Part shown: positions 2,231-59,287 of the stretch, piece after piece | Numbering within the stretch: the stretch's first letter is position 1 | How the letters are laid out: each line of letters starts with the position of its first letter | From: Naegleria gruberi | Taxonomy: Eukaryota | Strand: one strand, 5' to 3' | Length of the DNA: 64,000 nt | Assembly (NCBI GenBank): GCA_000004985.1 | Contig: GG738903.1 | The notes under the pieces: generated by a model | What the model was told of the DNA's origin: nothing | Seen by the model: the letters and a program-made list of their open reading frames with translations, nothing else | Database searches by the model: none | Program-made: the position numbers and the translations under genes

Positions 2231-2261
2231 TGTTTTACACCCAACACACACAATGAACATG

Positions 2262-2460
2262 TTCATCTTGGTTCCTCTAATGGTCATGAATATCATATCT
2301 TTGATACTGCTGGTAAACCATTCGAAAAGGAATGGATGGAAATGATGTGAATCAAATTCAATAGGTAATGCATGAATTGCCAACAGGTGTAAACTTGTCA
2401 CTTTCTAAATGGATGAATTCAGAAATTGTTACAGAAAATGCAGTTGGATTTGTGTTTTGA
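2262..2460 (+). pseudogene. Fragment (3' end) of an IRG/IIGP-like GTPase, paralogous to the gene at 37212..37962(-)
   Basis: ~90% nucleotide identity by eye to the reverse complement of 37212..37420; encodes HLGSSNGHEYHIFDTAGKPFEK then loses frame (EWMEMM*), downstream part continues in another frame (PTGVNLSLSKWMNSEIV). Confidence 0.6.
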
Positions 2461-3347
2461 GCGTTTCTCTTTTACCCTTAATAGCTTCCATTACAATTTC
2501 CTTGTCATTTCTAATTTCCTCTGAGGCGTATGCAAGTAAACTTGCATGGTTTTTAATTGCTATCATTGCCAACTGTCTGTCATTTCTTAATTCCTTTGAT
2601 ACATGTTTATAAACAATGTCAGCATGTCGGTTAATAGCTTCTGTTACAATTTCTCTGTCACCTCTTAGTTGTTTTGAGGCATATTCAAACATCCATCCAC
2701 ATTTCTTAACTAGTTCCATTACAAGTTCTCTATTATTTTTTATCTCAATAGATGCAAATTCAAAAGCACTCATGTTTTGTTTAATAGCTGCCAATACAAT
2801 TTCTTTGTCTCTTAAATAATGACATACATGTTGAAGTGCAAGGCCATTTTGCTTAACAGCTTCCATTGCTATTTCTTTGTCATGTTTATTAATGTAATTA
2901 TATTTTAGACTCTTTCCATTATTCTTAACGGCAAGAAGTACTATTTCTCTGTTATATTGTAATTGTTTTGATGCATATTGAAGTGGCAAATCCATCAGTC
3001 TGGACTGCTTTCATAATAATTTCTCTATCACTTATCAAATCATCAGGACAATATTTCAAAACATCAACATTGTACTTAATAGCCTCTAAAACAAGTTCTC
3101 TGTCTCTTTTCAGTTCTTCACTAACGTTTTCAAATACTATTATTGGAAATATATTTACAATCATCATGACAATAAACTTGTTATTCCATAAATTCAACAT
3201 TTTCATAACTTTAATAGCCAAATTAAACATTCTATTAGAATTATGTTGGAAGAGTTTTGAAATTAAATAAAAACCATGTTTCTTATAATCAAAGTTGTAA
3301 TGGTCATCACCAACAAGAACAACATCATCTTTCTGACTTTGTAACAC
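2429..3347 (-). CDS. DUF4116-type repeat protein (two overlapping ORFs in different frames, likely one gene with a frameshift or unresolved short intron)
   Basis: Repeated ~30-aa units of the form E(L/I)V(L/M)EA(I/V)K.NG.AL(Q/K)YAS.ELR.D(K/R)EIV; ORFs 2429..2995 and 2952..3347 overlap by 44 nt in different frames. Confidence 0.4.
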
Positions 3348-3479: not shown

Positions 3480-3930
3480 TTCTTCTTGTTTAAAGAGGTA
3501 GCATTTGAATGCCGCATCCTTAATAACGCGTTTTGTTTCTTTTTTAAAAATGGGGATGGAAAATCCGCCATTCCAATCCCAGATTCCTCCACCAACTGGA
3601 TCCACGAATTTAAGCGGTTTTTTGACTTTGAATCCAGCTAACAATCCGTCTGTAAAGTGTGNNNNNNNNNNNNNNNNNNNNNNNNNNNNNNNNNNNNNNN
3701 NNNNNNNNNNNAATTGTGAGTTATTTAAATAGTAGATACTTTTTGTTACAAAATCTTAGAGAACATGACTGCTTAGCCCATACAATGATTGTTTTAACAC
3801 ATTCCACAGAGACAAGGTGAGAAGCAATTTGTGGATAAAGTTACAAATGCCTTTCTATTTGCATTCTTGGATAATCCAAAAGATCTTTCCAAAGATTTGA
3901 CACAAGTTGTGGAAGCAAAGATAAATAATT
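3480..3930 (+). pseudogene. Degenerate IRG/IIGP-like GTPase remnant, paralogous to gene at 36387..37058(-); interrupted by an assembly gap
   Basis: 3782..3930 translates to [40 protein letters not shown], which matches C-terminus of 36387..37058 gene (EKQFVDKVTNAVPFAFLDNPKDLSKDLKPQVMEACK); 3560..3660 encodes STNLSGFLTLNPANN resembling the P-loop-proximal SSFINTLLKFFNPNI; no intact ORF. Confidence 0.5.
3662..3711. other. Assembly gap (50 N)
   Basis: Run of n characters. Confidence 1.
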
Positions 3931-3956
3931 AAATGTTGGTTTAATGCAAAAGGAAT

Positions 3957-4029
3957 CGCCCACCGTGGGGGTCGAACCCACGACCACAAGGTTAAGAGCC
4001 TTGCGCTCTACCGACTGAGCTAGACGGGC
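3957..4029 (-). tRNA. tRNA-Lys (anticodon CUU)
   Basis: Reverse complement gcccgtctagctcagtcggtagagcgcaaggctCTTaaccttgtggtcgtgggttcgacccccacggtgggcg folds as cloverleaf with T-loop GGTTCGA; identical to copy at 36227..36299. Confidence 0.9.
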
Positions 4030-4148
4030 TGTTATTGAGTCATTCCTTAATGACGTTAAATTGATTAACGACTTTTCCTTTGTGGCGATTTAATGCTTAG
4101 TTTACCAAAACAATACAAACTGAACTTTTTGACATTAGAATGTTAATT

Positions 4149-6392: not shown

Positions 6393-6888
6393 GATTATCT
6401 AAAACAAATGTACAATGCCGATTAAACTTACCCTTCTCCTCTTTTGACCATGAATCAAACTTGCTCTTTGGAGGTTGTTTCTTATTGTTACTTTGTCGTG
6501 ATAACATTTTTTACTGGTTTGGATGTTTTAATAATAGATCATCATCATAATTTTCCACAAGTGTTGTTCATCCTATTTCAAAGTGGAGCTTGAATTTTCT
6601 GAAGATTTAGACAAGGTAAAACTGTTATCATCAGCATTATAATACTCTAGTATTTAATCATGTTTGCTTTCAGCAATTTCCATTGTAAATATAATATTCC
6701 AATCAAATGAATTAAAGCCTTCCGCAACAATGATACTTGAACAAATAAACAAGGAATAAGCCAAATTTTTGCTTTTTATTTTTTACGTAATTCAAAAAAA
6801 TTTTAAACCCTCTCCACCGCGTTTGCTGCCTTGTTGAAGTTTTACACCAACAACATCAAAACATCATCATCTTCATCATCAAGCAAGT

Positions 6889-12805: not shown

Positions 12806-15800
12806 ATGAAAAAGGTATTTGGTAGTTACCATTGCCAACTTTTAGTTTTGTTGGCTTTTTGCATGTGTTTTGTGCAATCAACAAATATTTATCAATCATC
12901 TTCATCAAATTCCTCTATTTATTATAATAATTTGGCCACCTATAGTGTTCAAACAATTATTGGATATCCGAGGCCATTGCAAAATTACTTTCCGAGTGGT
13001 TTGCCAGCCACTTACTATTGGGGATTATCAATACAGGCAATTGTATTGCCACGAAATGGTGATGGAAGTTTACATGGTGATGAAATTATTTACATCTCCT
13101 CCATGGAAATAATTTACAAATATTCAAAACAAGATGGACTATTGAGAAAGTTATCATTTAGTGGTGAGAAATGGTATGATATTTCATCATTCTTTGTTTT
13201 GAAAACTCAGGAAGGAGGAACTTTAATATATGTTACTTCCAATAGACTCGAGTCGACTGTTTATTCGGCAAGTGAAGAAAGTGGAACTGTTCAGAGGATT
13301 GCAGGTTCTTTGAGTTCATCGGGATATAATGGTACGTAATGGAGTAAATTGATTTTGTAATATGAGAATGTACATTGTAAAGGTGATGGAAAACCAGCTA
13401 TCGATTCCTTACTGAGCCAACCTCAATCTGTATTTGTTAAGGATGGTGAGGTTTATATTTGTGATACAAATAATCATCTGATTCGACGTATTGATAGGAA
13501 TGGAATTTTATGGAATGTTTTTCGTAAGTGTGTGTTAATTTTCAATTTATTTAAAACATTTAATATTTCTAAAAACAGAAAAAGGGTTTGTAAGGGAACC
13601 ACAACAACTAATTTTTGCAGGGAATGATATGGTAGTAAACACAGGCAATTTGATTCTTAGAATATTTCCCAATCAAACATATGAAACTCATTATGCTTTC
13701 TATTCATTTTCTAAAGCTGCTGTTTTTGAAAATGATATCTACTATATCAATTATGGTAGTATCCAGAAGGCAATTGGTTCATATTCCTCTGAGACTGTGT
13801 TAGTGTTTGAAAAATCTGCCAAAATTCCTAGAATTCTAACAATCAACAATGAGGGAAATTATTTAGTTTCAGTTGGAAACGTTTTAAAAGAATTTCAGAG
13901 ATATAATGATAGTATTGGAAGAGTTGTGATTGGAACATCGGATTCTAATCTTCAATACTATACATTACCAGCAAATATCTCAGATATTCAAAACGTTGAA
14001 TCGATGACACTTTGTGAAGAGGACAATTCCATTATTTTCACTCAACATTCGTCTTCTGTTATAAGACATTATGTTCCAAACAAACCATTCATGGATGTTG
14101 TTGGAATGAATGTGGATAAGATATCTTTTATTTCAAAGTATGGGAATGATATGTATGCAATTGTGAATAATAATATTTACTTGAGGAATAACCAAGGAAA
14201 TTTCACTCAATTATCAGGATTGCTATCACCAGTCAATGTACCTGATAATATTAAGGCAACATTATCAACCTTAAACAATCCTAGAGGAATATTTCTTAAA
14301 AACCAAAAACTGTACATTTCTGATTCGAATAATCATAGAATACGAGTAATTGATATACAAACTGGACTTATTTCTACATTGGCAGGAAATGGAATTGCAA
14401 ATTTTAGTGGTGATGGGCTAGCCGCAACAGAAGCATCCCTAAACTCTCCATCTGGTGTATTTGTTTCAGAGTTTGGAAAAATTTATATATCTGACTCTGG
14501 TAATCATAGAATTAGAGCTATTCTTCCAAATGGCATTATTTCAACTGTTGGAGGTAATGGTATTCCTGGATTTTCGGGTGATAATGGTTTGGCTACTAAT
14601 GCAAGTCTTAACAACCCCTATGGCATAGTTGAAACATATAGTGGTGACTTGATTATTTCTGATTCTGATAACAATAGAATTAGACTAATCGATAGATATG
14701 GAATTATCACAACTCTAGCTGGAACAGGAGAGAAAGGATTCCAGGATGGATTCTTTCTCGACGCGTTATTTAACAATCCATCTCAATTATTTTACTTCCA
14801 TTCCCGCTTGTACATTTCAGATACATATGGCCAAAGGATTCGTGAAGCAAATCTTGAATCAAAAACCGTAAAAACAATTATTGGAACAGGAGAGAAGGGA
14901 TACAATGGAGATAATTTCCCAACCACCACTCAGCTCAATAACCCTCTATCAATGTTTATTACATATAATAATATTATTTACATTGCAGATACTGACAACA
15001 AGAAAATAAGAATGTTGAATACGGGTATTGTATCAACACTAGAGCTTACTTTTGAATCTCCAAAGGGAATAACTGGAGATGATAAATTTCTCTATATCAC
15101 CGATGGGAATTTAGTTAAGAAAATTGATATTGCCAATGGTTATAGAGTTGAAATTATTGGAGGTGGAATTGGTGATGGTTGGTACTTGAAGTATGCAATT
15201 CTTAATGCTGAAAACCTTGCTTTTGATGATGAGAAGAATGTTTATTTTACAGATTCTTCTCATAATGTTGTAAGAAAGTTCAATACAATGAATGGAATAG
15301 TGAGTACAGTAGCAGGAAGGACTAGTACATTGGGATATGAAGGTAAGTTTCAATTACTACTAATATCTCATTAAAAAAACAACAGGTGATGGTGGATTGG
15401 CTGTTGGGGCTCTCTTAAATTTTCCAAAAGGTATTGCAGTTTCCAAGTCGAGTTTAGGATTCTTTCTCTATATTTGTGACTTTGAAAATCAACGCATTCG
15501 AAGAGTTAATTTGGAAACTGGAATAATAACAACAGTAGTAGGTACAGGTCAAAAAGGATATAGTGGTGATGGAGGGTTAGCAATTTATGCCAAGATTACT
15601 AATCCAACACATATAGCTGTCAACAAGGAAGGAGAAGTTTTCTTCTCAGATTACAATTATGTAAGGAAAATAACAAGAAATGGATATGTTTATAGAATAT
15701 CTGGTGCTCAAGGAGGAACTGATTTTAATGGAGATTCATATCCTGCTTTGGAAACAGGTTTCAGTATTACAAGTAAGTATTTTATCTCCGTTTTGAAATT

Positions 15801-17429
15801 CATATTTCAATTCAGAAACTTTAATGGTAGATAATACTGGAAGTATTGTTGTTTTCGATTATAACAATCAAATTATTAGAAAGTTAATTCCTCACTGTGA
15901 AACTGGCTATAGTTTGGAACCTGAAACTAATTCTACATGCATTCCAAATTGTTTTGGAATTTATGGAAAAACAATTAATGCTTGTTCTTCACATGGATTT
16001 TGTAAAAGTTTAGATCAATGTGAATGTTATTCTGGTTATTCTGGATCAAATTGCTCAGAATCAATATGCTTTGGTAAGACGGGATCTGGAGCATGTAATG
16101 GCAAAGGAATTTGTGTTTCACCAAATGTTTGTCAGTGCTTGGATGATTATTCAGGTATTGATTGTTCGATACCTAAAACAGTTTTAATTTTAGTTGGAAG
16201 TTTGATTGCTTGTGGCTTGGTTATTGTAATAGTTTTTGTAATTTCTGTTTCAATGGTCTTTGTCTATATTCAAAATCAAAGAAAGAAGAGAGCAATCCTC
16301 ATGACTGACAAATTATTAGACAAGAGATTGCTTATGGATGATTTTGCATCCTATAATTCTTCAATGGGGATCAGTAATAGTGAACTCAATGAAGCAGATT
16401 TTGTTATTCCACTGGAACAGTTGGATATGGATCATCCAATCAAGAGGATTGGTGAAGGTTCTTTTGGAAGAGTATTTTCTACAAAATGGGGAAACCAATT
16501 AGTTGCCGTTAAGGTTGTGGACATGAATGATTTTGACATGTCGGAGGAAACTTTCAAACAAGAATTTCAAATCTTGTCACGTTTAAGACATCCAAAAATT
16601 GTCTCCTTCTATGGCATTTCATTTTCTCCAACGAAGAGATATATTGTTATGGAGCTTTGTGAACACAGCTTGGAACATGTCATTAGTCAATTGCAGAATC
16701 AAGTTATTCAAATGGATTTACAGGAAAAGATTGATATTCTAATAGATATTATTGAGGGAGTGAATTATTTACATACCTTGACTCCAAAATGCCTTCATAG
16801 AGATTTGAAACCCCTCAATATTCTTGTGAGCTTTCAGAAAGAATACAAATTATGCGATTTTGGTGTTGGAAAGATTTTAAACTCAAAAACTGTCAATTCT
16901 TTGACCAACAATGGTAAGTTTCAATGAAATTGTTCTCAATATTTAATTATATTCACAAAACACAATAGTGGGGACGTGTTACTATATGGCTCCAGAAACT
17001 ACAGGATGTGAAAGTTTACAAGAATCTGAATCAGTTTGTGCTACTTCAATAGATATTTACAGTCTGGCCATTATTTTCTACCAATTATTATTTGAAGTGA
17101 AAGAGCCCTATATTTCATGTCATGATAGAGTTTTGAAAAAGTTGAAAATGAATGAACCACTACAATTGACTAACATGTACCATTTGCATAGATTAGTGAT
17201 TGAGAAAAACCTCAGACCTATCATTCCATTTTCTTCTGCAAAGGAATGTCAACAATGGTGTCAGGAATATCTATCACCAACAGATGCCAAATATCATAGC
17301 ATTTTCTATGAGATTTGTCAATTAACTAAACTATGTTGGGATAAACAACCAAAAACGAGACCAAGTGCAAAAACTATTTTAGAACGACTCCATGGTTGGA
17401 AGAAAGAAATTGAAACAAAGTATTACTAA
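12806..17429 (+). CDS. Receptor-like protein kinase: signal peptide, NHL repeats, tenascin-type EGF repeats, TM helix, protein kinase domain (about 6 exons)
   Basis: Exons approx 12806..13333, 13381..13529, 13620..15344, 15387..15774, 15811..16914, 16969..17429 with GTAAGT/GTACGT donors. Encodes the signal peptide MKKVFGSYHCQLLVLLAFCMCFVQS. NHL units repeated >10 times (e.g. SDSNNHRIRVIDIQTGLISTLAGNG). EGF-like CECYSGYSGSNCSESICFG..CQCLDDYSGIDCS. TM segment LILVGSLIACGLVIVIVFVISVSMVFVYI. Kinase motifs GEGSFGRV, VAVK, HRDLKPLNILV, DFGVGK, YMAPE. Confidence 0.8.
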
Positions 17430-17513: not shown

Positions 17514-18727
17514 AGGCAGTAGATACTTGTATAACTTTGCACTTTTCAAAAACTCTTTTGAATGCCAAATAGTTGGATTGATCTTTTCCATCTTCCAAAA
17601 TAGCAAACACAATACTCTTAAAACTATTTGGAAATTCCTGAGTTATTACTTCATAAAACAATTTAGCCATATGATTTTCTGAAATAAATTGAATTCAATA
17701 AAACAAATAATTAAATAATTAACTTACCTGGATTCTTGTATGCTCCACATCCAAAAGCACTCAACACAATACTCAAATGTCCATTATTAAGAGCTGCATA
17801 AAGAATTCCTCTAATTTTCTGTCTTGTTCCTTCCTCAAACTTGCTCGTCATCATGAGTTGATTTGTCTTTTTATCTAAAAAGGTATTTGGTCTAATGAAA
17901 GCACTTGCTGCAATGATTGAAATTTCCAATGGTTGATCCAAATATTCGAAAGCACTTCCTTCTCCGTGTCTTAATAATTGAACATTGGGTGAGTAAATGA
18001 TATCATAATCAGAAAGTGGATAGAACTGATCTGGGCCAATAACTGAAACTATTTGTTGATCAGGGGAAGGTTTCTTACAATTTGGATTAAACTTTTTGAA
18101 AATATCATTTGGATCTAATAGAGAATAAATGTAATTTGTTGATCTGAAGAGAGCTTCTTCTTGACTTTTCTGTCCAGTTTCAAAACCTCCACCAGCTCTC
18201 TTCTTACTTGCCATATTTAGCACAACTGGATTCATTCCATTTTTGTGTAATTTGAAAATAGTTTCAACACAATCTTCCTTAATTACTTCAATGGTAGTAG
18301 CAAATTGTTGATTAGTAGAGGTGGAATTGAAGACAATCTTCTCAATTTCATTAAATTGATATAACTTATTCTTTGCCAATTGTTGCTCATAAATTTCTTT
18401 ATCCAAGTTTCTAATAGAAACTTTCTCCTTCTTTGAATTATAATAAAACCCTCTCTGTAATGACAACATTGTATCCTTCATGACATAAATCCTCATTCCC
18501 TTCAATGCATCTGGATTATTCTCATTCAAATATCGTTGATGCCACTTTCTAAAAACAACCGAATTAAAAACTGGTGATTGTAACAATAATTTATCCGCAT
18601 TTTCTTGAATTTGATTATAGCTCTGATCAAGAGGATCCGATAAATCAATAGATTGTTGCTGATTTCCCTTTGGATTATTTGCTGATTTATCATCCGATGA
18701 TTTTCCTGGTTTCTTGTTTTTTACCAT
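17514..18727 (-). CDS. Microbial-type poly(ADP-ribose) glycohydrolase (DUF2263/TIGR02452 family); approx complement(join(17514..17678,17728..18727))
   Basis: PARG signature GGG-X7-QEE present (KKRAGGGFETGQKSQEEALFR); C-terminal SAFGCGAYKNPG then, after a 49-nt GTAAGT intron, ...IVFAILEDGKDQSNYLAFKRVF typical of this family; probable start MVKNKKPGKSS. Confidence 0.7.
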
Positions 18728-22371: not shown

Positions 22372-24551
22372 GTGTTGATGCCCATTAAACACTTCTTTAC
22401 ATTAAAGAGATTAGAAAGCATCTTAAAGATCCTTATTAAAAAAAATATGAAGACCAAAGTTGCACCTAATATCAAATACGAAACTGAAAGTGTTTCTAGT
22501 TCTTCGGCTGATGGTATCGATGAATTGAAAACTACCTTTTTCTCTTCCATTAAATTTCTGCTCATAATTTTAATTTCCTTATTAATTTTGATTAGTGTCG
22601 TTTTGCTGTCAGTTATTTGGATCAGCAGTTTTAGTTCAGCAGTTGGTGAGATGAGCAGCAAAGTGAGAAGACAAGAATTTGAAAAGATTGTTTCATTCAC
22701 TCAAAGGATTTTAAATGATGTCATGTTAGTGACAGAATCTGTCAAATCTCAATTATATTCTGATTTTGATTTTGACACCATGATTGAAAAGCACATGTTT
22801 AAAGCCATGAGAGTAGCTCAGAAATATCTACCAAGTGTTACCCAGGGAGTCAATATAGGTGATCCATTTGGAGCCTTTTATGGACTAGCTCACTTTGGGG
22901 ATGAAATTACTTTTTATAATATCACTCCAGGAAAAGATCAGTACTATTACAATTGTCGAAACTTTTACACTAGTGACTATTGTAATAGATCTTCTGAACC
23001 TGATATTGTCTATCCTCCATTCACTTCCAATTTTGTGGCAGAATCTGCTTCAGTCAACCCTGGCAATCCGGTGTTTACAGTTTCGTATGTGGATCCAACC
23101 TTACCGAATTTTGTCTTCCTTACAGCAGTCTCATCTTTCAAACAGGGAAATATCAAGTCAGGTGCCAGTTTTTCATACTTTTTTGGTTATGACATGACCG
23201 TGGCTTCAATTTCTGAATTTTTAGTTGAAATTACAAAAGAAGTGAGTGGCTCATCTTCGTTTATTATAGAAAAGAAGACAGATTTCATTATTGCAAGTGA
23301 CCATCCAGAGGTTGCGGTTGCCACAGTCGATTCTCAAGGAAACGTTCAAAGAAAAACAGCAAACGATTTTGGAGGTGATGTTACCAAAATTGGTAATATT
23401 GTTTATGGAGCTTTTAAATCATTTGATGAATTAACTTGCAATACTGAAAGTGTACTATCAGATGTTAGTAATGTCATTTCGGTTTATAGACTTTGTACTG
23501 AGGAGGGATTGGAATGGGTTCTTGTGTTTAGTGTTCCTCACTGGAATTATATTGGATCGATGGTTATTGCGATAATTTGTGCCATTTTGGGATCAATTCT
23601 GATCGTTTCTATTGGTATGGTAANNNNNNNNNNNNNNNNNNNNNNNNNNNNNNNNNNNNNNNNNNNNNNNNNNNNNNNNNNNNNNNNNNNNNNNNNNNNN
23701 NNNNNNNNNNNNNNNAAATGAATCCAACGATACAGTTACACTCTTGACTGACATTTTTGAAATCATTGGACAAGCAGCCAAAACAAGTTGTGGACAAATT
23801 GGAAAGTTTGAAAATGAAATGGTGACTATTCATTTCAATGCCACAAATGATCAAAATCAACATGAAATGAAAGGTCTACAATTATGTCATGTCCTCCTAT
23901 CCAAGTTAAATGGATACAAGGAAAGAAAATTAAGGAAACATCAATTATTGGAAAAGTATAAGGAATCCTCTCTCATAGAACGATTCAACTTTAGAATAGT
24001 TGCCAATAGTCAATATAATTTGTGTGGAAATTTGGGAACGAAACAAGTGATGACATTTTCAATTCTTGGAAGTACACCTTTCAATTTACAATCAATGATT
24101 GAAACTGCTAAGGAATTGGATGTTCCAATATTAATTTCAGATGATTTGAATGAAAAGGTTGATAATTTATTCCAAACTAGATATGTGGATACGAAAGAAA
24201 TGGTCATTGATCAGTATTACACCTCCCCTGTATCTGATTCGAATTTGTTTAGTATGAGAAGAGTTTATGAATTGGGAGAATCTTCTCAAATTGCGCAAGA
24301 TGAATGGATGTAAGTTATCATGGTTCTTTACTAATTAATTTTCAAATAATTTATTCGAAAGGTATGAGTTGGAAGCTAAGGAAAAGAAGAATCGTTGGAA
24401 CAAGTACAATAATGCATGTGCAATGGTCTTTGAGAATAAATATGGTGACGCTGCAAACATGTTGCGGGATTACATTACAGAACTTTCGAATGCAAAACAA
24501 GATTTGGTAGCTATAAGGTTACTTGAAAATTGTGAAAGACTATGCCAGTAA
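22372..24551 (+). CDS. Receptor-type adenylate/guanylate cyclase-like membrane protein (2 TM helices flanking an extracellular domain; degenerate class III cyclase homology domain); interrupted by assembly gap; last exon 24362..24551
   Basis: TM1 FLLIILISLLILISVVLLSVIWI, ~330-aa extracellular region, TM2 MVIAIICAILGSILIVSIGMV, gap, then CHD-like VTLLTDIFEIIG...RIVANSQYNLCGNLGTKQVMTFSILGSTPFNLQSMIETAKELDVPILISDD (cf. RIGIHSGPV.AGVVG...GDTVNTASRMES); GTAAGT intron before final exon YELEAKEKK... Confidence 0.45.
23624..23715. other. Assembly gap (92 N) inside the cyclase-like gene
   Basis: Run of n characters. Confidence 1.
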
Positions 24552-32111: not shown

Positions 32112-33068
32112 TCAAATGCATAAAGATCGCTCTGCTGAACTATTCTCCAAATCACTCTTAGTTGTAAGGAGAATTACTTCTGGATTGATGGCATGAGTAC
32201 GAAATTCCTCCTTTTTGTAATCAAACACGTGCTTTACATTACTGGAATAAGGATTTCCTAATAGTAAGATTGTTGAAGTAGCTCTATAAAAGGTGAATGG
32301 AATGTGTAAAACTCTCTCACCAGAGTAACTATCCCACAATTCCAGCTTTAACTTTGTTTCTTGGCCAATGTTGAATTGCTTAACTGCAAAATCAATTCCA
32401 ATTGGAGGTAGAATGAATGGATTTAAGGAAACAGGTGAATCTTTCATGGCACACTCGTGAAATGAGGTTTTTCCTGATTTATGTTCTCCATCCAATAAAA
32501 CTTTGACCATTTGGGGAGAATTCTTTGGTGGGATAGAAGAAGCAATAGCATCAACTGTGTTGCTTTCTGATGAAGAAGTTTTGAAGAATCCAAGAAAACT
32601 GTCGAATAATCCTGTTTTTGACTTTTCCTTTTTTGATTTACTTTTCGAATCTTGATACTCATTGAAAAAACCTTTCAATATTACTAATTCTTCATCTACC
32701 CAACTGTCATCAACAGAAATTATTTTAGAATCTCCAGAAATTATTGCAATTTTTGCTAATTTACATGCAAATTCATAAACTTGCCTTCTCAACAAATACT
32801 TGATGAACTTCCTTGCCCGAAAATCAGAAGATAGCAACAACTGATCCAACTCTTTAAATCCCGAACATTTTAATTTAAATTTTCTAATTAATATTTCATA
32901 TTCTTTCCAAATTAATTCAATAGATTTTCCTCTCCACTTTTTACACACTCTCCCAAATATGAAAAACAATTCCACACTATTGAAAAAATGTAATACTTCT
33001 CCGATTATCATATCATTAGGCAATTCATGAAAAAGAGTGGAGTAAGAAATTGTTTTGCATGTTTCCAT
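32112..33068 (-). CDS. F-box-like domain fused to a Rab-like small GTPase domain with degenerate G3/G4 motifs
   Basis: N-terminus LFHELPNDMIIGEVLHFFNSVELFFIFGRVCKKWR (F-box-like). C-terminal half begins with G1 GEHKSGKTS. It continues PPIGIDFAVKQF..KLKLELWDSYSGERV (cf. Rab PTIGVDF...KLQIWDTAGQERF), then YRATSTILLLGNPYSS. It ends with ILLTTKSDL (cf. LLVGNKCDL). Confidence 0.5.
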   Translation of the reverse strand: METCKTISYSTLFHELPNDMIIGEVLHFFNSVELFFIFGRVCKKWRGKSIELIWKEYEILIRKFKLKCSGFKELDQLLLSSDFRARKFIKYLLRRQVYEFACKLAKIAIISGDSKIISVDDSWVDEELVILKGFFNEYQDSKSKSKKEKSKTGLFDSFLGFFKTSSSESNTVDAIASSIPPKNSPQMVKVLLDGEHKSGKTSFHECAMKDSPVSLNPFILPPIGIDFAVKQFNIGQETKLKLELWDSYSGERVLHIPFTFYRATSTILLLGNPYSSNVKHVFDYKKEEFRTHAINPEVILLTTKSDLENSSAERSLCI

Positions 33069-33859: not shown

Positions 33860-34918
33860 TTAATTATAATTGATATCACACAATGTAAATTCTGTTTCTT
33901 CTTTGAATCCACTTCGTACATACACTCCATTTGAGGTTGGATTTGATGAATCGGCAGTCAGAAACATCCACTTGAATAATTGATTTCCACCTTCTTCCTT
34001 TCTTTCGAATAATTGCATTGACATGGATTGAATGAGAAATGAGGCAATACCTCTTCCTCTATATTCTTCCTCTGTGAATACATGAGTAATTCTACATGCA
34101 CTTGGAATTGGAGTGGCCAAAGCAATGGCAATAGGATTCGAATTTCCTTTCATGGTAACATAGAAGGTATTTCCTTTCTGGGATGGTCTAAGCAACATAT
34201 TTTCGAGAATAAATTGTTCTGATGGCACTATTGCTGGAAAACAAATCTTACAAAATCTGTGAATCATATTGGCACAGTGTTTGGTTAGATTTTCATTGGT
34301 TGTGTCCAAAAATTTGAGTTCGTAATTTGTTTCCTTAGGTGGAAGTGTTAAATGATCTCTAATGAGTGAGTAGGACATCATCTTTACCTGAATTTTGTAA
34401 GAAGGAGAAGGATTCATACCAGGATCAAAATTTGAAACGTATTCCTCACATAGAAATAAACTTTCCTCAGTTGACCAGAATCCAGTCAACTTTCTGTCAA
34501 ACTTTTTAACGATTTCTTCAAATTGATCAAAGGATAATACATCACTATTGTTGGAAATTCTCAAATTCCGATAATCAACTGAACAAAACATTTTTAAAAC
34601 TCCTCTTGCAACTATTTTTCTAGTTTCCAATAATTGTTTCTCATCTGGAAAACTAAACACCATCAATTGTGGTGGAAACCAAGTCACGACTCTTTCAATT
34701 TCTCCCTTCTGATGTACAACCATAAGGAATCTCCTATCTATTGTAAATCTTTCCGGATTGTCAACCATGGATTTCATCAAACCAATTTGATAATTATTAC
34801 TTGCAGAATTTTCAAGAAGAAACGCAAGACAATCATTATAGAATTTCAAGGTATCTGTGTAGAATGTGATGGTGTGAGAGTTTTCATCAATGGAAGGTAA
34901 GGAATAAGTTATTGACAT
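33860..34918 (-). CDS. GNAT-family N-acetyltransferase domain protein
   Basis: C-terminal region ...RITHVFTEEEYRGRGIASFLIQSMSMQLFE... contains GNAT motif A (R/Q-x-x-G-x-G/A). Confidence 0.5.
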   Translation of the reverse strand: MSITYSLPSIDENSHTITFYTDTLKFYNDCLAFLLENSASNNYQIGLMKSMVDNPERFTIDRRFLMVVHQKGEIERVVTWFPPQLMVFSFPDEKQLLETRKIVARGVLKMFCSVDYRNLRISNNSDVLSFDQFEEIVKKFDRKLTGFWSTEESLFLCEEYVSNFDPGMNPSPSYKIQVKMMSYSLIRDHLTLPPKETNYELKFLDTTNENLTKHCANMIHRFCKICFPAIVPSEQFILENMLLRPSQKGNTFYVTMKGNSNPIAIALATPIPSACRITHVFTEEEYRGRGIASFLIQSMSMQLFERKEEGGNQLFKWMFLTADSSNPTSNGVYVRSGFKEETEFTLCDINYN

Positions 34919-35376
34919 TTTTTTTTAAAGAGTTTTCACAAAGATTACAATAAAAAAAGGCAATTACCATCAACTTGTGTAACAATTATAGAAAATCCGT
35001 ACTATTTGTTGAAATCTTATTGAATAGCAGTATTAGTAATTAAATTATTCCAATTTTTTTGTAATTTAGAACTTCCCAATTTTGCTCCAAGCTCGATTTT
35101 CTTGAAAAACCACCACCACGTGTAAACCTCCTTTTGATACTTGTCCAATTCCTGTTTGTTATTGTATAAATGGTATTCCTTAATTCTGGATTAATATGAT
35201 AAGGTGTTCTTTGTGTGAAATAATTTTTCAATGGATGATTGACTTAACCAGAAAAAAGACAAAACAAATCCTCAGGAATAGGAATTGAGCCATATTTATT
35301 ACAAAAGTTTACAATAGTGTTCAAAATAATTCTAAAGTTGTTTAGATTTTTCAAAAAAATAGATCAAAAAAAAACA

Positions 35377-36168
35377 ATGGAATACATTGGGGCCAATCTC
35401 ATTCTCTCCTATTCATCTGCAGAAAAGAATGCAATCATCACACACGATAAAAGATCAACTACTGCCATCATTAATCAAGATGATGAATTTATTCCATTTC
35501 TCTATCTAGGAGGAAAGACAGCTGCAGAAATTGATCATCAAGCACTTTATGAAGCATTCTCAATTACTCATCTATTGAATGTGAGTGAAACTCCTAATAA
35601 TAATACTTGTTGTAATATTAAATCAAACTCCGATGATGAGAATGAAAATAATTTAATAATTGATGATGAAAATGAAAATAATGAAAAGGAGACAAATTCA
35701 CCCATTCAAAGTCTTCATCTTCCGTTCCTTGATGCTCCGAATGGTAAATTGGAACACATTCTGCCACAAGCTTTCGAATTTATTGAGAAATGTTTCGAAC
35801 AGAAAGGTTGTTTATTGGTGCATTGTAGAGCTGGAGTTTCTCGTTCAGCAAGTGTGGTGGCTGCCTTTATAATGTATCGATTTGGATTCAATCTAAAAAG
35901 AGTTCTATCTCTAATGAAAGAGAGGAGACCTTCGGTGGATCCAAACTTTGGTTTCATTTACAAATTGAAAGAGTTGGAGAAGCAGTATTGTGATGAGAAG
36001 GATTTAGTGGATAGTATTAATGTGGAGGAGGTGTGGAGCAAGTATTGGTATGATTATGAGATGGTGAAGGAGTGGACACAAAGTGAAATTGCTGAACTGT
36101 TTAGTATGGATGGAGATTTTGATGAGAATGTGGAAACACTAATTTCATTAAGGAATAGATCAAAATAA
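35377..36168 (+). CDS. Dual-specificity protein phosphatase
   Basis: Catalytic HCxxGxxRS loop: LVHCRAGVSRSASVVAAFIMY; upstream acidic low-complexity insert. Confidence 0.7.
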   Translation: MEYIGANLILSYSSAEKNAIITHDKRSTTAIINQDDEFIPFLYLGGKTAAEIDHQALYEAFSITHLLNVSETPNNNTCCNIKSNSDDENENNLIIDDENENNEKETNSPIQSLHLPFLDAPNGKLEHILPQAFEFIEKCFEQKGCLLVHCRAGVSRSASVVAAFIMYRFGFNLKRVLSLMKERRPSVDPNFGFIYKLKELEKQYCDEKDLVDSINVEEVWSKYWYDYEMVKEWTQSEIAELFSMDGDFDENVETLISLRNRSK

Positions 36169-36226
36169 ATAAATACCAGAAAATCCTTAAGAAAATATTT
36201 AAGATCATTAAGGAAAGACTCAACAA

Positions 36227-36299
36227 GCCCGTCTAGCTCAGTCGGTAGAGCGCAAGGCTCTTAACCTTGTGGTCGTGGGTTCGACCCCCACGGTGGGCG
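36227..36299 (+). tRNA. tRNA-Lys (anticodon CUU), second identical copy
   Basis: gcccgtctagctcagtcggtagagcgcaaggctCTTaaccttgtggtcgtgggttcgacccccacggtgggcg. Confidence 0.9.
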
Positions 36300-36386
36300 A
36301 TTCAGTTTTATATTTCTAGTTATTTGTATCTAGATATTCCTTTTACCTTAAACCAATGTTGAACAGAGTTTAATTATTTACATATT

Positions 36387-37058
36387 TTAAAAGAAACCCC
36401 ATGCTTTGAATTGTCTTGAAATTCTTTTGCATGCTTCCATAACTTGTGGTTTCAAATCTTTGGAAAGATCTTTTGGATTATCCAAGAATGCAAATGGAAC
36501 AGCATTTGTAACTTTATCCACAAATTGCTTCTCTGACATTGACTCTGTGAAATGTGTTAAAACAATCATTGGATTGAAAGGAAGCCCCTTTACATCTGTT
36601 TCTTTAACAGCATTTTGGAATTTGACAAATTTTTGTAAAGAAACAGAATTCCATTCACAAGCTCTACAAACAAAAATAACTGCGTCAATTCTATTATCGA
36701 GGTCAATCTTGTTTGTCAAGTAATTTTCCACTAAATTAGTTCCGGTCTTGATTCCTTGCAAGATTAATTTTAAGGTATTCAAGTCGTCTGGATTTTCGAA
36801 TGGTTTACCAGCAGAATCAAACAACAACAAGTTGGCAGACGAAACTGGAACACTTTCGTAAAGTAAGGTACCAACTTCTGCCTTTCTTCCAACATCACAT
36901 GTTTCAACCATGATATTTGGATTGAAAAATTTGAGGAGAGTGTTGATGAAGGATGATTTACCTGAATGTGGATCACCAACCACAAGAATTTTGAGAGGAA
37001 GGTTTGGGAGAGTTGTTAAAGACATTTTTTGTTGAACCAAATTGAAACGTGATGTCAC
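36387..37058 (-). CDS. IRG/IIGP-like (p47 immunity-related-GTPase-like) P-loop GTPase, G-domain only (223 aa)
   Basis: P-loop VVGDPHSGKSSFINTLLKF closely resembles IIGP1 GETGSGKSSFINTLRG (from memory); DxxG LLFDSAGKPF; tandem paralog of next gene. Confidence 0.5.
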   Translation of the reverse strand: MTSRFNLVQQKMSLTTLPNLPLKILVVGDPHSGKSSFINTLLKFFNPNIMVETCDVGRKAEVGTLLYESVPVSSANLLLFDSAGKPFENPDDLNTLKLILQGIKTGTNLVENYLTNKIDLDNRIDAVIFVCRACEWNSVSLQKFVKFQNAVKETDVKGLPFNPMIVLTHFTESMSEKQFVDKVTNAVPFAFLDNPKDLSKDLKPQVMEACKRISRQFKAWGFF

Positions 37059-37211
37059 GTTAAGAATATCTACTCACTGGTATTTATTTTCACGTTTCGA
37101 AAACTTTTTCGATGTGTATTTCATTACATTTTTAAGGAAAGATGCATTAGTTTCAAAGAAAGTTGGGTCAATACTTTTGCTAAAGACATATTTATTCATT
37201 TAATAACTAAT

Positions 37212-37962
37212 CTATCTACGCTTTGTAAGAACCTCTGCACTGACAACAAGGAACACAAATCCAACTACATTTTCTTTAACAATTTCTGAATTCATCCATT
37301 CAGAAAGTGACAAGTTTACACCTGTTGGCAATCCATGAATTAACTTTTGAATTTGATTCACATCATTTCCATCCATTCCCTTTTCGAATGGTTTACCAGC
37401 AGTATCAAAGATGTGATATTCATGACCATTAGAGGAACCGAGATGAACTTTTTCATAGTGAACTGTGCCAACATCTGCCTTTCGTCCAACATCACAACTT
37501 GCAACTTGGATTCGTCTATTGAAATATTTACACAATGTGTTGATTGTTGAGGATTTTCCAGAGTGTTGAGGTCCAAGCACAAGAATGTTGGTAGACTTTT
37601 TGTTAGGATTATATTTCATGTTTTCAACCTCAATTTTTTGTAACATCAAGTCAATGATTTTGTTCTTTTCTGATGGAATGTCAGTTTCCAAGTTGATATG
37701 ATTTTCAAAAAAGAAAATTCTATTTTCATGGATAAGGTTAGACAGAGATTCCTTTAATTCAATTCTTGTTGAGCTGGGGATTTTTTCATGGTTTGTAATA
37801 ATGACCAAAGGTTTTTGTTCTGATAAAGTTGAAATACGAATGTGGAAGAAACTTACTGAGTGATGATTTTTTTTCGAGCCATTGGTAAAGATTTCCAATA
37901 TTAATAACAGCGTCTGTGTCTATGACAATAGATGGACCAAAGAAAAATTCGAACAAACCCAT
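37212..37962 (-). CDS. IRG/IIGP-like P-loop GTPase, tandem paralog; probable 40-nt intron near 5' end (start MGLFEFFFGPS... at 37962)
   Basis: P-loop LVLGPQHSGKSSTINTLCKYF, DxxG IFDTAGKPFEK; ~45-50% identity by eye to 36387..37058 product. Confidence 0.5.
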
Positions 37963-38460
37963 TTTTTTTAAGTTATTCGAATCTTGGTGGAAACGAGTGA
38001 GGTAGAAAAAGTATTGTGATTCTAACTACAAACTGCAAACGTGATGATTTCTATGCAACCTCTCACGTTTCCATTCTATTCGAATCTAATGAAAGAACAA
38101 GAAACGTGAAATCATCACGTTTGCTATTAGAATCACAAATCTCGTTTACAATAAAAACTCAAAAAAAAACGCATGCAGATCTTTCAGACCTTTCTTCAGA
38201 ATTTTCGTGGTTTGTGGAGTAGAAACACAATTCAAAAGACTCAATGCAAACCCTCTTTGGAAATTTTAGAGGACTGCTTTAAGAAAAACCGTAGGTTTCT
38301 TTCATTTTAGATTCAGATACAGTTTCGAATAGAAGAAAAAGTTGTTTTTGTTTCATTTGGAAAGAAAGAAGCCATATTCAGCAATATTCCAGAAAATTAC
38401 TTTCTTTTCGTTCAGAAAGAAACGGATTTCGATCTTATTCATCAAACCATTCACAAGATT

Positions 38461-39102
38461 GTGAAACATCGAAATGACCAAACTATTTCGATTAGAATTT
38501 TAGGTCAACCAACTCATTTGAAAGAGGAAATTCAACAATTGTTCTTGTCATTGTTTAATGTTGTGGAAGATGGTGATAATTCGAGTGACGTTGTCGTGTA
38601 TTTTGTTGAAAACATTGAAACTGTATACGAAACTGTTTCGGATAGTCCAGAAAGAGTTTCTAATGCTTCTGACAATGATCCACAAGAATTATCTCATAAC
38701 TTATTTGATAGGGTCACCAACGAACTAAACTCTGACATTTCCATAACTGGAAATTACAACGAGCACGCAGAACTTTTAAGAAATTGCCTCTCTCGTTTAA
38801 TCAACCCAATTTCAAAGGAGAAGAAACTATTCTTATTTAGTTGGAAGAAAGGTCCTCAATCAACTGTTTTCTTTAGAGATGATGGTTATTTTAGAGAACA
38901 CAAAGATGATCCATTATCGAGGGAGAATTATTGTGTTTTGTTTCTTCCAATGGATAAAGAAAGTTATTGGAGTTTGAAGAGTGAATATTTGAAATTTGTT
39001 CAATCGACTCATCCAAATGTTTCATTCTTTTATGTTGATAGCATTGGGTCTTTTGATGAGCGTCATTTGTCAATTGATTTTATTAAGTGGCTTTCAGGAT
39101 AA
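38461..39102 (+). CDS. Hypothetical protein; 5' end undetermined (no in-frame ATG near ORF start)
   Basis: 213 aa ORF with no recognisable motifs. Confidence 0.3.
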   Translation: MKHRNDQTISIRILGQPTHLKEEIQQLFLSLFNVVEDGDNSSDVVVYFVENIETVYETVSDSPERVSNASDNDPQELSHNLFDRVTNELNSDISITGNYNEHAELLRNCLSRLINPISKEKKLFLFSWKKGPQSTVFFRDDGYFREHKDDPLSRENYCVLFLPMDKESYWSLKSEYLKFVQSTHPNVSFFYVDSIGSFDERHLSIDFIKWLSG

Positions 39103-39642: not shown

Positions 39643-41517
39643 TTATTTTACTTTTTTAATGAGTTTTAACAGATTTTCAATCTCTGACTCATTTTCAATA
39701 GCATCAATTGAACAATTATAATCATAATATAACCACACAACACCTCTCTCTCTAATAGATATATCCGATTGATAGAGATTTACACCTGAAGGAAACGAAT
39801 CATCTGGTGAGTCCTTTTTCCAATAGGTCTTATTGAGAGTTGCCAAAACCATGATAACAGATGCTCCTCCATAATTTTTGTTCTCATCTGAGAGTGTTAC
39901 CTTGAAATCAGACCATGTTGGTGGTCCATTATGATAAATGAATCGAAGGACGACATCTGGCTTTTGAATTTCTTGCAATGATTGAATATTGAGATTGAGG
40001 AATTGTTGATTGGCCTTTTCTTTGAGTTTCTTCTTGAAATTGCCAGAGATTCCTTCCTTTCTATCTGAAATTGCAACTTGAAAGGTTCTTTCTCTGATTA
40101 TCTCAATAGTATATTTTTGGGAGGTTGAAGGAGTTCTTGAATTCATTATTGATAGGACTGATTGACCAATGGTGGATGGTGTCGTGAAGGAAACCTTAAT
40201 GACTGATCGTTCAGGGATGAATTCCACCATGCATTCCATAGAGCTACTGGCAAAATGTTGTAGAACTGCTCTGACAGATGTCAAGTCAAGGAATTCAACA
40301 TTCTCATCATAAATGTCGCATATTTTAAATTCCAAATAGGTAAGAGTCTTCTCACGTAAAACCCATTTAGAATCTTGAATTTGCACATTCTCTGAGTTAA
40401 TAAGGGCCATCTTGGACCAGTTGACATCCTGACAATCAGCAGTAAATTCAACAGTTTTTTGTTGATCTCCAAACTTGAGCTGAAGCACTGCTTCCCCCAC
40501 AAACTGACATTTAAAGTCAATAACAAGATTATTATCCATAACTGAGACCTTACAATTCCATTCAGAATTTCCACATCTCACAATTGCCTTAATATCCTCC
40601 GCCTTAAACTGCTTGACTTGATGTGAATTGTTAATATTAACACAGGGGATGATAACTGAGCAGTCTTTTCCAGCTATACATCTCTTATTCCAGTTTGATT
40701 TGGAAATACTATTAGCTAAAGATAGTTCTCTATGGTTAAATGTCTTGACTTCCTTTAATAGAATGGTTCCCATGTATTCTAAAGAAAATTCGTATAATCC
40801 TTCGTTTTTGATACAGAAAGATCTGTTCCATTGCTTCCTTCTTTGTAAGCTTGATTGCAATACCAAATTAGATTTCTTTTCAAATGTTTCATTATGCATA
40901 TCAACACCACGAACTCGAATAATTAAATCACTTTCCTTCACGTTCAAATCTGTTTCGACAATAAAATTCACTGGATCATTGGTGTAAATTATTTGAGAAT
41001 GAGGTTCTATTCTTTTTACATGAACCTCTCCGATTCCAATTGATCTGGGAGGATCTTGAATTTTCTTTAATTCCAATTCAGATTTAGTTTGAATAATTGG
41101 CAATGTTTGAGTTGTTTGATTTTGAATCAGTGATGGCTTTTCAGAGTTCATTAATCCACTCTCTACAATTTTAATCATTTCACTTTTCATTGATTTTGAA
41201 ACTTGGTCAACAATATTATTCAACTGTTCCAATTGACTCATCGAAGTTGCATTCCACCAAAACGGTTTCATCTCAAACAATCGACTCAAATACATCAAAG
41301 CAGCTCCTTCCCTAGAAAGCTTAATCTGTTTAAATTCCAATCTGATTTGATCGACATTTGATCTTGAAAAAGAGACAGCCCATGGATAATTAGTGTCACC
41401 ATATTTGAATTGAAGTTCTAGAGCTTCTAATAAATCATCCTTTATGTTATTCATATGGACGAATTGGACTGCCAATTCATAGTTGAATGGAGTTGCAAAC
41501 TTGAATGATTGCAACAT
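39643..41517 (-). CDS. Hypothetical protein (624 aa)
   Basis: Long ORF, starts with ATG, no recognisable motifs. Confidence 0.45.
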   Translation of the reverse strand: MLQSFKFATPFNYELAVQFVHMNNIKDDLLEALELQFKYGDTNYPWAVSFSRSNVDQIRLEFKQIKLSREGAALMYLSRLFEMKPFWWNATSMSQLEQLNNIVDQVSKSMKSEMIKIVESGLMNSEKPSLIQNQTTQTLPIIQTKSELELKKIQDPPRSIGIGEVHVKRIEPHSQIIYTNDPVNFIVETDLNVKESDLIIRVRGVDMHNETFEKKSNLVLQSSLQRRKQWNRSFCIKNEGLYEFSLEYMGTILLKEVKTFNHRELSLANSISKSNWNKRCIAGKDCSVIIPCVNINNSHQVKQFKAEDIKAIVRCGNSEWNCKVSVMDNNLVIDFKCQFVGEAVLQLKFGDQQKTVEFTADCQDVNWSKMALINSENVQIQDSKWVLREKTLTYLEFKICDIYDENVEFLDLTSVRAVLQHFASSSMECMVEFIPERSVIKVSFTTPSTIGQSVLSIMNSRTPSTSQKYTIEIIRERTFQVAISDRKEGISGNFKKKLKEKANQQFLNLNIQSLQEIQKPDVVLRFIYHNGPPTWSDFKVTLSDENKNYGGASVIMVLATLNKTYWKKDSPDDSFPSGVNLYQSDISIRERGVVWLYYDYNCSIDAIENESEIENLLKLIKKVK

Positions 41518-41718
41518 TTTTTTTCTTTTAAAACGTGATTTGTTGAATGGGCTTTTTGAGTCTTGGAATTATTATTAGAAAGCACGTTTCGTCCACTTTA
41601 CTCCAACACGTTTCGTTTCATCACGTTTCGAATGGCCTTAAAAGTTGGTTGTGTTTATCACGTATTAGAGAAATATATAACAAGAAAAAACAAACAACCA
41701 AATCATCAAACAATAAGA

Positions 41719-42271
41719 ATGTCATCCCCAACCCACTATGCTTGCCTTGAATCCAATAACAATTCAAAGTTCAGATTTGCCTATCATGAAACATTCTCAT
41801 CCCAACAATCTGGAAAAGTATTCTTGATTGATTTTGAAAATTCTGTCAAGTATATGAATGATAATTGTCCTCTTGATGTCATCAATACAAAGGTTTTTAC
41901 TCAATTGGTCAGTGGACTTGTTTCAGTCAAGATTTCAGACGAAACTAAAGGAGTCATTGAACTCACCATTGGAACCAAATGTTTGAAATTGGAAAAGACT
42001 GAAATTACAAGTCAAGATTTCCTTCAAGAACAGGTTTACTTGTTGGAGAAGAAGTTTGAAAGAATGCTCAAAGGTAAGTTGTCGGCAATTCGAATAATTT
42101 TGTTGATAACAACAATTTAAAAGAAAATGATAACAAGATTAAAAGCTTGAATGAAGAAATTCACTGCTTAAGAGCAATGAATGAAGAATTGGCTCGAGTT
42201 GTGAGAACCAAGAACGAAGAACAACCTGTTCAACCAGTTGCTGAAGAAGTTCCACCAGTTGTTGTCGAATA
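41719..42271 (+). CDS. Hypothetical coiled-coil protein, 2 exons (intron approx 42077..42123)
   Basis: MSSPTHYACLE...ERMLKG | KENDNKIKSLNEEIHCLRAMNEELARVV...; GTAAGT donor. Confidence 0.4.
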
Positions 42272-58738: not shown

Positions 58739-59287
58739 TGTTTCTAATATTATTATCAAGAACTTTGCATTTACATTTGGTTTTGCTGCCCAAGTCAGAG
58801 CTTTCGGATTGAACAAGGATTTTATTGATACTCAAATCATATATGTGGATTTTGAAGCTGGAATGATGAGAATTGATGCTGAGATTTCCTTTGCTCCAAT
58901 TACAGACATTCCAGTCTCTGTCATTACCAAGTCCTCTGGTCACGGAACTGACTATGTCATTGAGGAATTCTTTAACTGGAACCATGGTTCAAAAGCCATC
59001 CCCATCAACAGATATGCCATTAAAAAGCAATAAACTGTTACAATCAATACATTTGGCAAATCATGTCCACATCATTAAAATTCAATTTTTCATTGAATTT
59101 ATAAATAAAATGTTTTGGAATGATATCAATATCCGAATAGAATAGAATTTCGTCATGCCACACTACATATTTTAATGAGGGAGCACAGCTTTCCATTCCA
59201 TTTATGCTTTGAATCTTGACCACCTTTCGATTATTATTCGAAAACACGGCGTATTCCACTATTTTCCATAATCGAACAAAAAATTCT

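Follow-up and report, generated by a model that had tools for sequence, protein, structure and literature searches.

In nature the G domain is very rarely circularly permuted, and the two types found described in the literature are YRG and cpRAS (PMC2430557). The YRG type (YlqF/RbgA/YawG, Nug1, Lsg1, RsgA) displays the motif order G4-G5-G1-G2-G3, which one survey argued to be the sole viable permuted order, and the cpRAS type displays the order G3-G4-G5-G1-G2 (PMC2430557). The cpRAS domains are Ras-like and are found in large multidomain proteins of protists, including Naegleria gruberi (Elias & Novotny 2008, PMC2430557). Described here are two adjacent genes, termed gene B and gene C, in a 64,000-nucleotide (nt) stretch of N. 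gruberi DNA (contig GG738903.1 of assembly GCA_000004985.1; the whole stretch is termed the window), which has a G+C content of ~33%. Both genes are on the minus strand and encode small P-loop proteins. Sequence comparisons indicate that gene B is quite probably a natural circular permutant of the G domain situated beside gene C, its paralog of canonical order, and that the nearest named kin of the pair are the G domains of IFI44 and IFI44L, interferon-induced animal proteins that also carry an N-terminal TLDc domain.

Gene C displays the canonical arrangement.

36387..37025, minus strand: gene C, 212 amino acids (aa), no intron required, a stand-alone G domain with the canonical order G1-G2-G3-G4-G5

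The gene lies in an open reading frame (ORF) at 36387..37058 on the minus strand, has its ATG at position 37025 and contains GDPHSGKSSFINTLLKF. The G1 motif is GDPHSGKS (positions 36977–36954; GDPHSGKSS in the longer context), the G2 threonine is found in DVGRKAEVGT and G3 is DSAG, within FDSAGKP. The G4 position is occupied by THFT, where the aspartate is lost. The AlphaFold model of gene C, based on a 58-sequence alignment, has a predicted local distance difference test (pLDDT) value of 88 and a predicted template modelling (pTM) score of 0.87; it replaced a run with a 4-sequence alignment that was unusable (pLDDT 46). The model displays a single G domain of six strands and five helices. In the first half these are β1 (residues 11–17), α1 (23–34), β2 (57–61), β3 (66–70), α2 (79–91) and β4 (115–121), and in the second half α3 (127–142), β5 (153–157), α4 (165–171), β6 (179–181) and α5 (193–208). 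A preliminary description of the locus, made from the letters alone, had proposed that the proteins consist of a G domain only, and the bare G domain of the gene C model agrees with this. The gene C product is 97% identical to the predicted protein P0001 of N. gruberi (E 7.5e-104). The public NEG-M model of gene C (P0001) is short, with a chain length of 172 aa; it starts at MVETC after the P-loop and is thus without the P-loop.

Gene B has the element order α3-β5(G4)-α4-β6-α5-linker-β1(G1)-G2-G3-β4, which gives the motif order G4-G5-G1-G2-G3. It is predicted to be spliced.

37962..37212, minus strand: gene B, spliced, predicted 237 aa
37857..37962, minus strand: gene B exon 1, MGLFEFFFGPSIVIDTDAVINIGNLYQWLEKKSSL, with the new N-terminus and helix α3
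37820..37856, minus strand: predicted gene B intron of 37 nt, phase 1, GTAAGT...ATCAG
37212..37819, minus strand: gene B exon 2, with β5, α4, β6, α5, the linker, β1, G1, G2, G3, α2, β4 and the stop codon

The long ORF of gene B at 37212..37898 (minus strand) carries GPQHSGKSSTINTLCKY (GPQHSGKSS). The motifs of exon 2 are PLVIITNHEK (G4-like, β5), IFFFENH (G5 region, β6), GPQHSGKS (G1, positions 37574–37551), DTAG (G3) and GFVFLVVSA (β4), and the chain ends about six residues past the β4 strand. The strand and helix positions in the gene C AlphaFold model therefore place the new ends of gene B in the β4-α3 loop. The swapped halves of gene B are homologous to the halves of gene C, and each element is present once, as expected of a permuted protein. 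The preliminary description had taken the locus as a tandem pair of genes of about 225–250 aa. Two minus-strand P-loop genes are indeed present; they are not simple tandem duplicates, as the products are of 212 and 237 aa and gene B is predicted to be spliced and permuted.

The homology of the two halves of gene B with gene C differs in strength. The C-terminal two-thirds of the gene B protein, from β1/G1 to β4, is 46% identical to gene C residues 13–122 (tblastn). The N-terminal, swapped half is recognized by profile comparison: the N-terminal ~100 aa of four permuted proteins align with a 58-member canonical alignment with an hhalign probability of 97.9% (E 3.5e-13). Here gene B residues 13–101 correspond to canonical alignment positions 162–249, which are gene C residues 127–209. 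The likenesses between gene B and gene C in this half are PLVIITNHEK with PMIVLTHFTE, IFFFENH with FAFLDNP, and the terminal helix. The orthologs give pairwise matches in the right register, as the swapped half of L004 matches P0002, a canonical relative, at E 7e-4 and that of L005 matches gene C at E 3e-4. In addition, gene B, the L004 ortholog, P0004 and P0087 are collinear over their full length with in silico permutations of canonical members.

The permuted layout is found in NEG-M (P0086) and in three relatives of environmental origin, the orthologs L004 and L005 (~50% identity) and the more distant P0004 (~28% identity), which is one intact ORF. The permuted genes are at positions 603–1371 of L004, 171–707 of L005 and, for P0004, 1036–1800 of locus L002. 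The C-termini vary; L004 stops at the end point of gene B, and L005 and P0004 have extra tails. A scan of the metagenomes of the Joint Genome Institute (JGI) with the permuted alignment gave no relatives.

The 5′ end of gene B requires attention, as the frame between the ATG at position 37962 and the long ORF is broken. The first ATG of the long ORF is well inside the protein and the frame upstream is closed by a stop codon; the ATG at 37962 is in another frame. Excising nt 37820–37856 joins this ATG to the long ORF and results in the 237 aa chain. The gene B product is 96% identical to the N. gruberi predicted protein P0086. The public NEG-M model of gene B (P0086) has the same stop but is short, 183 aa, and is without exon 1 and the G4 strand. 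Gene B exon 1 aligns with α3 of the canonical members, and in L004 it is kept at the protein level, with ...VETETVLGTSNLYNWLETKM compared with ...IDTDAVINIGNLYQWLEKKSSL in gene B. L004 has a 34-nt phase-1 intron (GTAAGT...ATAG) in the same place as in gene B, and here also its removal is required for an open frame. The L005 sequence opens with the last part (3′ end) of an intron located at the gene B site. A simple scan of the window shows nine further ORF-joining GTAAGT...AG introns of 33–55 nt, thus the 37-nt size is normal for this genome. A run of eight A residues lies just upstream of the break, and a homopolymer frameshift was considered instead of an intron. It was rejected, as L004 needs removal of 34 nt at the same site and has no homopolymer there; the uninterrupted ORF of the distant P0004, which matches the spliced length, also disfavors it.

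The broken frame and the A8 run could also be taken to mean that gene B is non-functional, i.e. what is left of a decaying tandem array, the tail of one dead copy having been joined fortuitously to the head of a second, truncated one. Gene B does end about 90 residues sooner than gene C when counted from the P-loop, the window contains further decayed pieces of both genes, and the public NEG-M models are both truncated (172 and 183 aa). However the canonical GTAAGT...AG intron repairs the frame and recurs at the same site and phase in L004, the protein sequence of exon 1 is conserved, and gene B has intact G1, G2 and G3 motifs and each structural element exactly once. The same head-and-tail layout recurs in L004 and L005, at about 50% identity, and in the intact ORF of P0004, at about 28%. 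The conservation of the layout in these sequences and in NEG-M therefore disfavors a decaying fusion relic, which is judged very unlikely, and gene B is treated below as a permuted gene.

The family to which the two genes belong was delimited by sequence searches. A word-indexed search of 5.8 billion proteins gave two relatives of gene C; with a HMMER profile, 85 were recovered from 1.84 billion representative proteins at E<=1e-3. The latter, together with the 97% and 96% N. gruberi matches, show that the two are true genes and not fortuitous ORFs. The members are mostly ~210–300 aa in length and come from short environmental contigs, and many begin with MG. The stand-alone members that carry a species name are from diplonemids, namely Diplonema papillatum (annotated “GTP-binding protein”), D. 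japonicum and Flectonema. No bona fide IRG was found in the gene C family search, and a scan of viral contigs with the canonical alignment gave no relatives.

Among Pfam models, the generic MMR_HSR1 alone is recognized, with 24.2 bits for gene C and matches to 47 of the 58 family members. The IIGP, Dynamin_N, Septin and AIG1 models give sub-threshold matches that are confined to the P-loop; the preliminary description had named profile searches of this kind as a check, and none assigns the genes to an IRG, AIG1, septin or dynamin family. For neither gene was a Ras family match listed. A family hidden Markov model (HMM) was built from 45 stand-alone members, with named IFI44 proteins excluded. 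With this HMM the Pongo IFI44L protein scores 58.9 bits over the whole G domain (HMM positions 30–246) and other IFI44-like proteins score 62–156 bits over most or all of the domain, whereas IRG proteins score 35–40 bits per domain over G1-G3 only. Comparison of alignments by hhalign gives the same order. The stand-alone family matches the IFI44-like proteins with 99.6% probability (E 7.1e-24, score 171, 237 columns), the IRGs with 98.4% (E 8.7e-15, score 108, 174 columns) and the EngA control with 96.4% (E 1.1e-9, score 73, 129 columns). Judged from these profiles, the family is closest to the G domains of the IFI44/IFI44L type; the IRGs are next by profile and not specifically related. The IFI44 link holds at the level of the family, and gene C alone reaches IFI44-like proteins only via the profile.

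The motifs NILxxGxxxxGKSSFxN, DTxG, NxIDxVxxV and PxVVxTKxD, a late xxNY strand and a terminal helix are common to IFI44/IFI44L and the family. Differences from IFI44/IFI44L are that the gene B and gene C proteins stand alone, at 237 and 212 aa, and are without a TLDc domain (PF07534 was not detected in either); that the NY motif is degenerate, being LDNP in gene C and FENH in gene B; and that one Naegleria member is circularly permuted. TLDc is present in the relatives P0057 and P0088. To our knowledge Naegleria has no interferon system, and a literature search found no relevant link between IFI44 and Naegleria. Human IFI44 is also without a complete G4 motif (bioRxiv 10.1101/2020.02.24.963900).

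The preliminary description had placed both genes among the short IRG/IIGP-like (p47) immunity GTPases, as a lineage-specific, duplicating and fast-evolving defence family. The likeness on which this was based is genuine. The P-loops are near the G1 motif of IRGs, the G domain is detectably homologous, IRGs surpass the EngA control in the hhalign comparison given above, and a profile search of PDB aligns Irgb6 (TGTP2) across the entire G domain with 44.9 bits. Pfam IIGP (PF05049) is the second-best model for gene C and gives 19.4 and 18.4 bits. These scores are below the gathering cut-off of 24 and cover only 26–29 residues of the P-loop; for gene B no IIGP match was listed. The IIGP model matches 14 of the 58 family members at E<=0.01, and the two that were scanned singly were both below the cut-off. 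The match to IFI44-like sequences is much stronger and extends across the entire domain, and the N- and C-terminal helical domains of IRGs (~400 aa in total) are absent from both proteins. In the PDB search Grn1/Nug1, septin-9 and Irgb6 score alike at 45–50 bits and the IRGs score 38–45 bits, thus septin-9 and Grn1/Nug1 equal or exceed the IRGs. Foldseek comparison of the gene C model with solved structures is led by GIMAP7, GIMAP2 and Toc34, with IRGs at about rank 50, and the template modelling (TM) scores of ~0.5 are generic.

A decayed extra copy exists in the window, however for N. gruberi the searches yield no more than the two genes, a dead copy and a short model (P0032) that resembles the decayed gene B fragment, and neither duplication nor rapid evolution of the family is in evidence; at ~50% identity the synonymous sites of the orthologs are saturated. 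PADLOC models of anti-phage defence give only P-loop noise at the locus and no meaningful matches, and with no expansion seen the suggestion of a defence-type family finds no footing. Membership of both genes in an IRG-like immunity family is accordingly regarded as very unlikely, and an IFI44-like affinity is preferred.

Another reading would place the two genes in the AIG1/GIMAP-Toc (“paraseptin”) group and not with the IFI44-like proteins. GIMAP/AIG1 and Toc34 proteins are the best Foldseek matches to gene C and are dimerisation-activated GTPases, and the VLTH strand is similar to what we take to be the Toc-type G4. The pair has neither the conserved box nor the C-terminal helical extension of GIMAP/AIG1 and Toc34 proteins. 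The Pfam AIG1 model (PF04548) matches the P-loop alone, with 14.8 bits where 27 are required, and in the profile search of PDB, which holds no IFI44 structure for comparison, both IRG and septin surpass GIMAP4 (33.5 bits) and Toc34 (31.7 bits). Assignment to this group appears highly improbable, and the IFI44-like assignment is retained.

A further question is whether gene B is an ancient YRG ribosome-biogenesis GTPase that lies beside gene C by coincidence. The motif order G4-G5-G1-G2-G3 is identical, and the breakpoint between G3/β4 and G4 is also that of YRG proteins (PMC2430557). The NCBIfam YlqF model spans the G4-to-G1 junction of gene B and L004 (residues 33–137), JGI names P0004 “ribosome biogenesis GTPase A”, and Grn1/Nug1 heads the PDB profile list, over G1-G3 only. 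The scores, however, show no homology at the family level. The YlqF model gives 16.2–23.2 bits, where the cut-off is 208.2, and YqeH gives 12.9–16.1 bits, where it is 297.4; the models tested were TIGR03596, TIGR03597 and RsgA, and the cut-offs were not reached. A chain of 237 aa leaves no room for the accessory RNA-binding domain. The G1-β4 half of gene B is close to gene C, the clade signatures CDVGRKAxVGT and AGKPFE are in common, and the profile comparison above ties the swapped half to the C-terminal half of the canonical family. Gene B is a recent offshoot of a canonical-order family with its canonical paralog adjacent, and descent from YRG proteins is exceedingly improbable. The JGI name of P0004 probably reflects the shared permuted motif order only, and this protein would be misnamed. 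Comparison with cpRAS leads to a similar result. Gene B resembles cpRAS as another independent natural G-domain permutation in protists; unlike cpRAS, its G3 motif (DTAG) follows G1-G2, and the protein is IFI44-like and stands alone. The permutation is therefore viewed as an independent one that took place within a family of IFI44-like stand-alone GTPases and whose canonical parent is the neighboring gene.

The closest canonical relatives of the G1-β4 half of gene B are gene C and P0002. Because this half is nearest to them and has the signatures CDVGRKAxVGT and AGKPFE in common with them, the permutation would have arisen inside the gene C/P0002 clade. A value of 42% identity of this half to gene C/P0002 comes from a split-halves MAFFT alignment that was otherwise discarded, as the canonical C-terminal halves were misplaced on the G1-G3 region. 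A duplication-fusion-truncation route to circular permutation has been described (PMC3320104). Proteins with two G domains in tandem are present in the wider family, i.e. P0015 (shark), P0057 and P0081, and represent the intermediate that the duplication model requires. We infer that the canonical gene was first duplicated in tandem, that the two copies were then fused in frame, and that the outer halves were subsequently lost to give the permuted gene.

G1 (GxxxxGKS), the G2 threonine and G3 (DxxG) are intact in both gene B and gene C, thus the two proteins should bind and hydrolyse a Mg-nucleoside triphosphate (Mg-NTP). The family consensus at G4 is T(K/H)xD, which is replaced by THFT in gene C, TNHE in gene B, THAK in P0002 and TNHS in L004. 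The guanine-specifying G4 aspartate is not kept in this clade, and with its replacement the preference for guanine may be less strict. If GIMAP, Toc, septin and IRG proteins are taken as a guide, the gene B and gene C products are probably nucleotide-dependent dimerising switches, and the two may possibly pair with each other as a dimer. Putative membrane-anchor signals differ among the permuted orthologs: P0004 has a CaaX-like CLIQ end, L005 a hydrophobic C-terminal tail and L004 a myristoylation-like MGGSSSK start. These sequences suggest membrane attachment of some of the permuted orthologs.

A more extended interpretation can be proposed, to which we give somewhat better than even chances. 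Gene B and its relatives would be the third case, after YRG and cpRAS, in which the GTPase fold was independently permuted, and the first known among IFI44-like proteins; they would belong to a near-complete living series that includes the parent and two-domain kin, and the B and C proteins might form a heterodimeric NTPase with relaxed base specificity.

The region around the two genes contains a tRNA gene, and part of the GTPase/tRNA block is found again near the start of the window, in an inverted and decayed segmental duplicate at 2.2–4.1 kilobases (blastn self-comparison of the window).

36227..36299, plus strand: tRNA-Lys, anticodon CTT (ARAGORN)
3957–4029, minus strand: second, identical tRNA-Lys within the inverted duplicate (ARAGORN, blastn self-comparison)
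2249..2456, plus strand: decayed inverted copy spanning G2 to β4 of gene B (37252–37460 versus 2456–2249, 93.8% DNA identity)
3780..3917, plus strand: decayed inverted copy of the 3′ end of gene C (36432–36574 versus 3917–3780, 90.9% DNA identity)
within 3780..4061: duplicated tRNA and flank (36197–36303 versus 4061–3953, 94.5% DNA identity)
2429..3347, minus strand: DUF4116-repeat gene between the decayed B and C fragments (214 bits to PF13475)
3662–3711: assembly gap (a run of N) inside the inverted duplicate

The tRNA-Lys(CTT) gene and gene C are arranged tail to tail with 88 base pairs (bp) between the tRNA and the gene C stop codon. The close flanking tRNA-Lys reported from the letters is thus present, as are the pseudogene copies placed there at 2.2–4.0 kilobases, which are the inverted duplicate with 90.9–94.5% DNA identity. 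The gene B fragment at 2249..2456 matches with 84–89% identity in two frames (tblastn) and has in-frame stops. The tRNA gene is a mere neighbor that was carried along in the duplicated block.

A short palindromic motif, the octamer TCACGTTT, is over-represented in the window. There are 11 occurrences where 1.5 are expected, and eight of the 11 are in inverted pairs in three promoter regions.

37045..37097: inverted pair (AAACGTGA ... TCACGTTT), 20–70 bp upstream of the gene C ATG, a candidate promoter element
38037..38122: two inverted pairs (four copies of TCACGTTT) in the interval that separates gene B from the divergent gene X
41531–41628: TCACGTTT pair upstream of the 624-aa gene at 39643..41517

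The region between gene B and gene X also appears as an inverted repeat at 38014–38138 in the blastn self-comparison. The shared motif suggests co-regulation of the genes concerned.

Gene X is the neighbor of gene B on the side opposite to gene C.

38461..39102, plus strand: gene X, 213 aa, without a Pfam family, oriented divergently to gene B

A homolog of gene X lies beside the permuted GTPase gene in L004 as well, at L004 positions 19–321 on the plus strand (blastp 37% identity, E 7e-18). The neighbor of P0004 in L002 (118–846, minus strand) has a weak similarity to gene X (hhalign 14%), and the upstream gene in L001 is not demonstrably gene X (E 0.9). Gene X and the permuted GTPase gene may represent a conserved gene pair.

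Other genes of the region are listed below. The 624-aa and 185-aa proteins have no Pfam or PADLOC match. The remaining neighbors are ordinary eukaryotic genes and include those for a Roc/Ras-type small GTPase, a dual-specificity phosphatase, a GNAT acetyltransferase, an F-box protein and an IBR/RBR-type protein. In L001 the canonical GTPase gene is also followed by an F-box gene. With candidate short introns present elsewhere in the window, several of its multi-ORF genes are probably single spliced genes.

39643..41517, minus strand: 624-aa protein
41563..42120, plus strand: 185-aa protein
32112–33068, minus strand: ordinary eukaryotic neighbor
33860–34918, minus strand: ordinary eukaryotic neighbor
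35317–36168, plus strand: ordinary eukaryotic neighbor
1332–2147, minus strand: ordinary eukaryotic neighbor
4929–6392, minus strand: ordinary eukaryotic neighbor
6399–6431: candidate short intron
7287–7328: candidate short intron
13524–13578: candidate short intron
15343–15385: candidate short intron
15773–15815: candidate short intron
16914–16968: candidate short intron
17679–17727: candidate short intron
24310–24361: candidate short intron
59259–59301: candidate short intron

Several observations weigh against the interpretation of gene B as a permuted, IFI44-like partner of gene C. The swapped half of gene B is highly diverged and matches gene C or P0002 in pairwise blastp only at E 0.16–0.22; the statistical support for this half therefore comes from the profiles and from the orthologs. 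The link to IFI44 rests on sequence profiles, as PDB has no IFI44 structure. Most of the family members are environmental sequences, which limits what they say on taxonomic range. In the related species the permuted and the canonical genes are on separate short contigs, thus the tandem arrangement may be lineage-specific. The TCACGTTT motif was not found at the orthologous environmental loci and for this reason is not treated as conserved. Activity and membrane association are uncertain, because the G4 aspartate is lost and the MGLFEFF start of gene B is a poor myristoylation site.

Both public N. gruberi models are truncated and one relative carries the name “ribosome biogenesis GTPase A” in error. 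If the permutation is as described, it would be an independent and recent event at the same breakpoint as in the YRG proteins, which would point to the β4-α3 loop as a privileged cut site. The parent gene would still be adjacent, and double-domain intermediates would still be present in the family. The two proteins would then be a tractable pair in which to follow the effects of permutation on nucleotide binding, switch behavior and dimerisation. As judged from sequence, the G domain of IFI44/IFI44L has stand-alone relatives in free-living protists, i.e. in Heterolobosea and diplonemids, and these relatives may serve as simpler models for the IFI44/IFI44L G domain.

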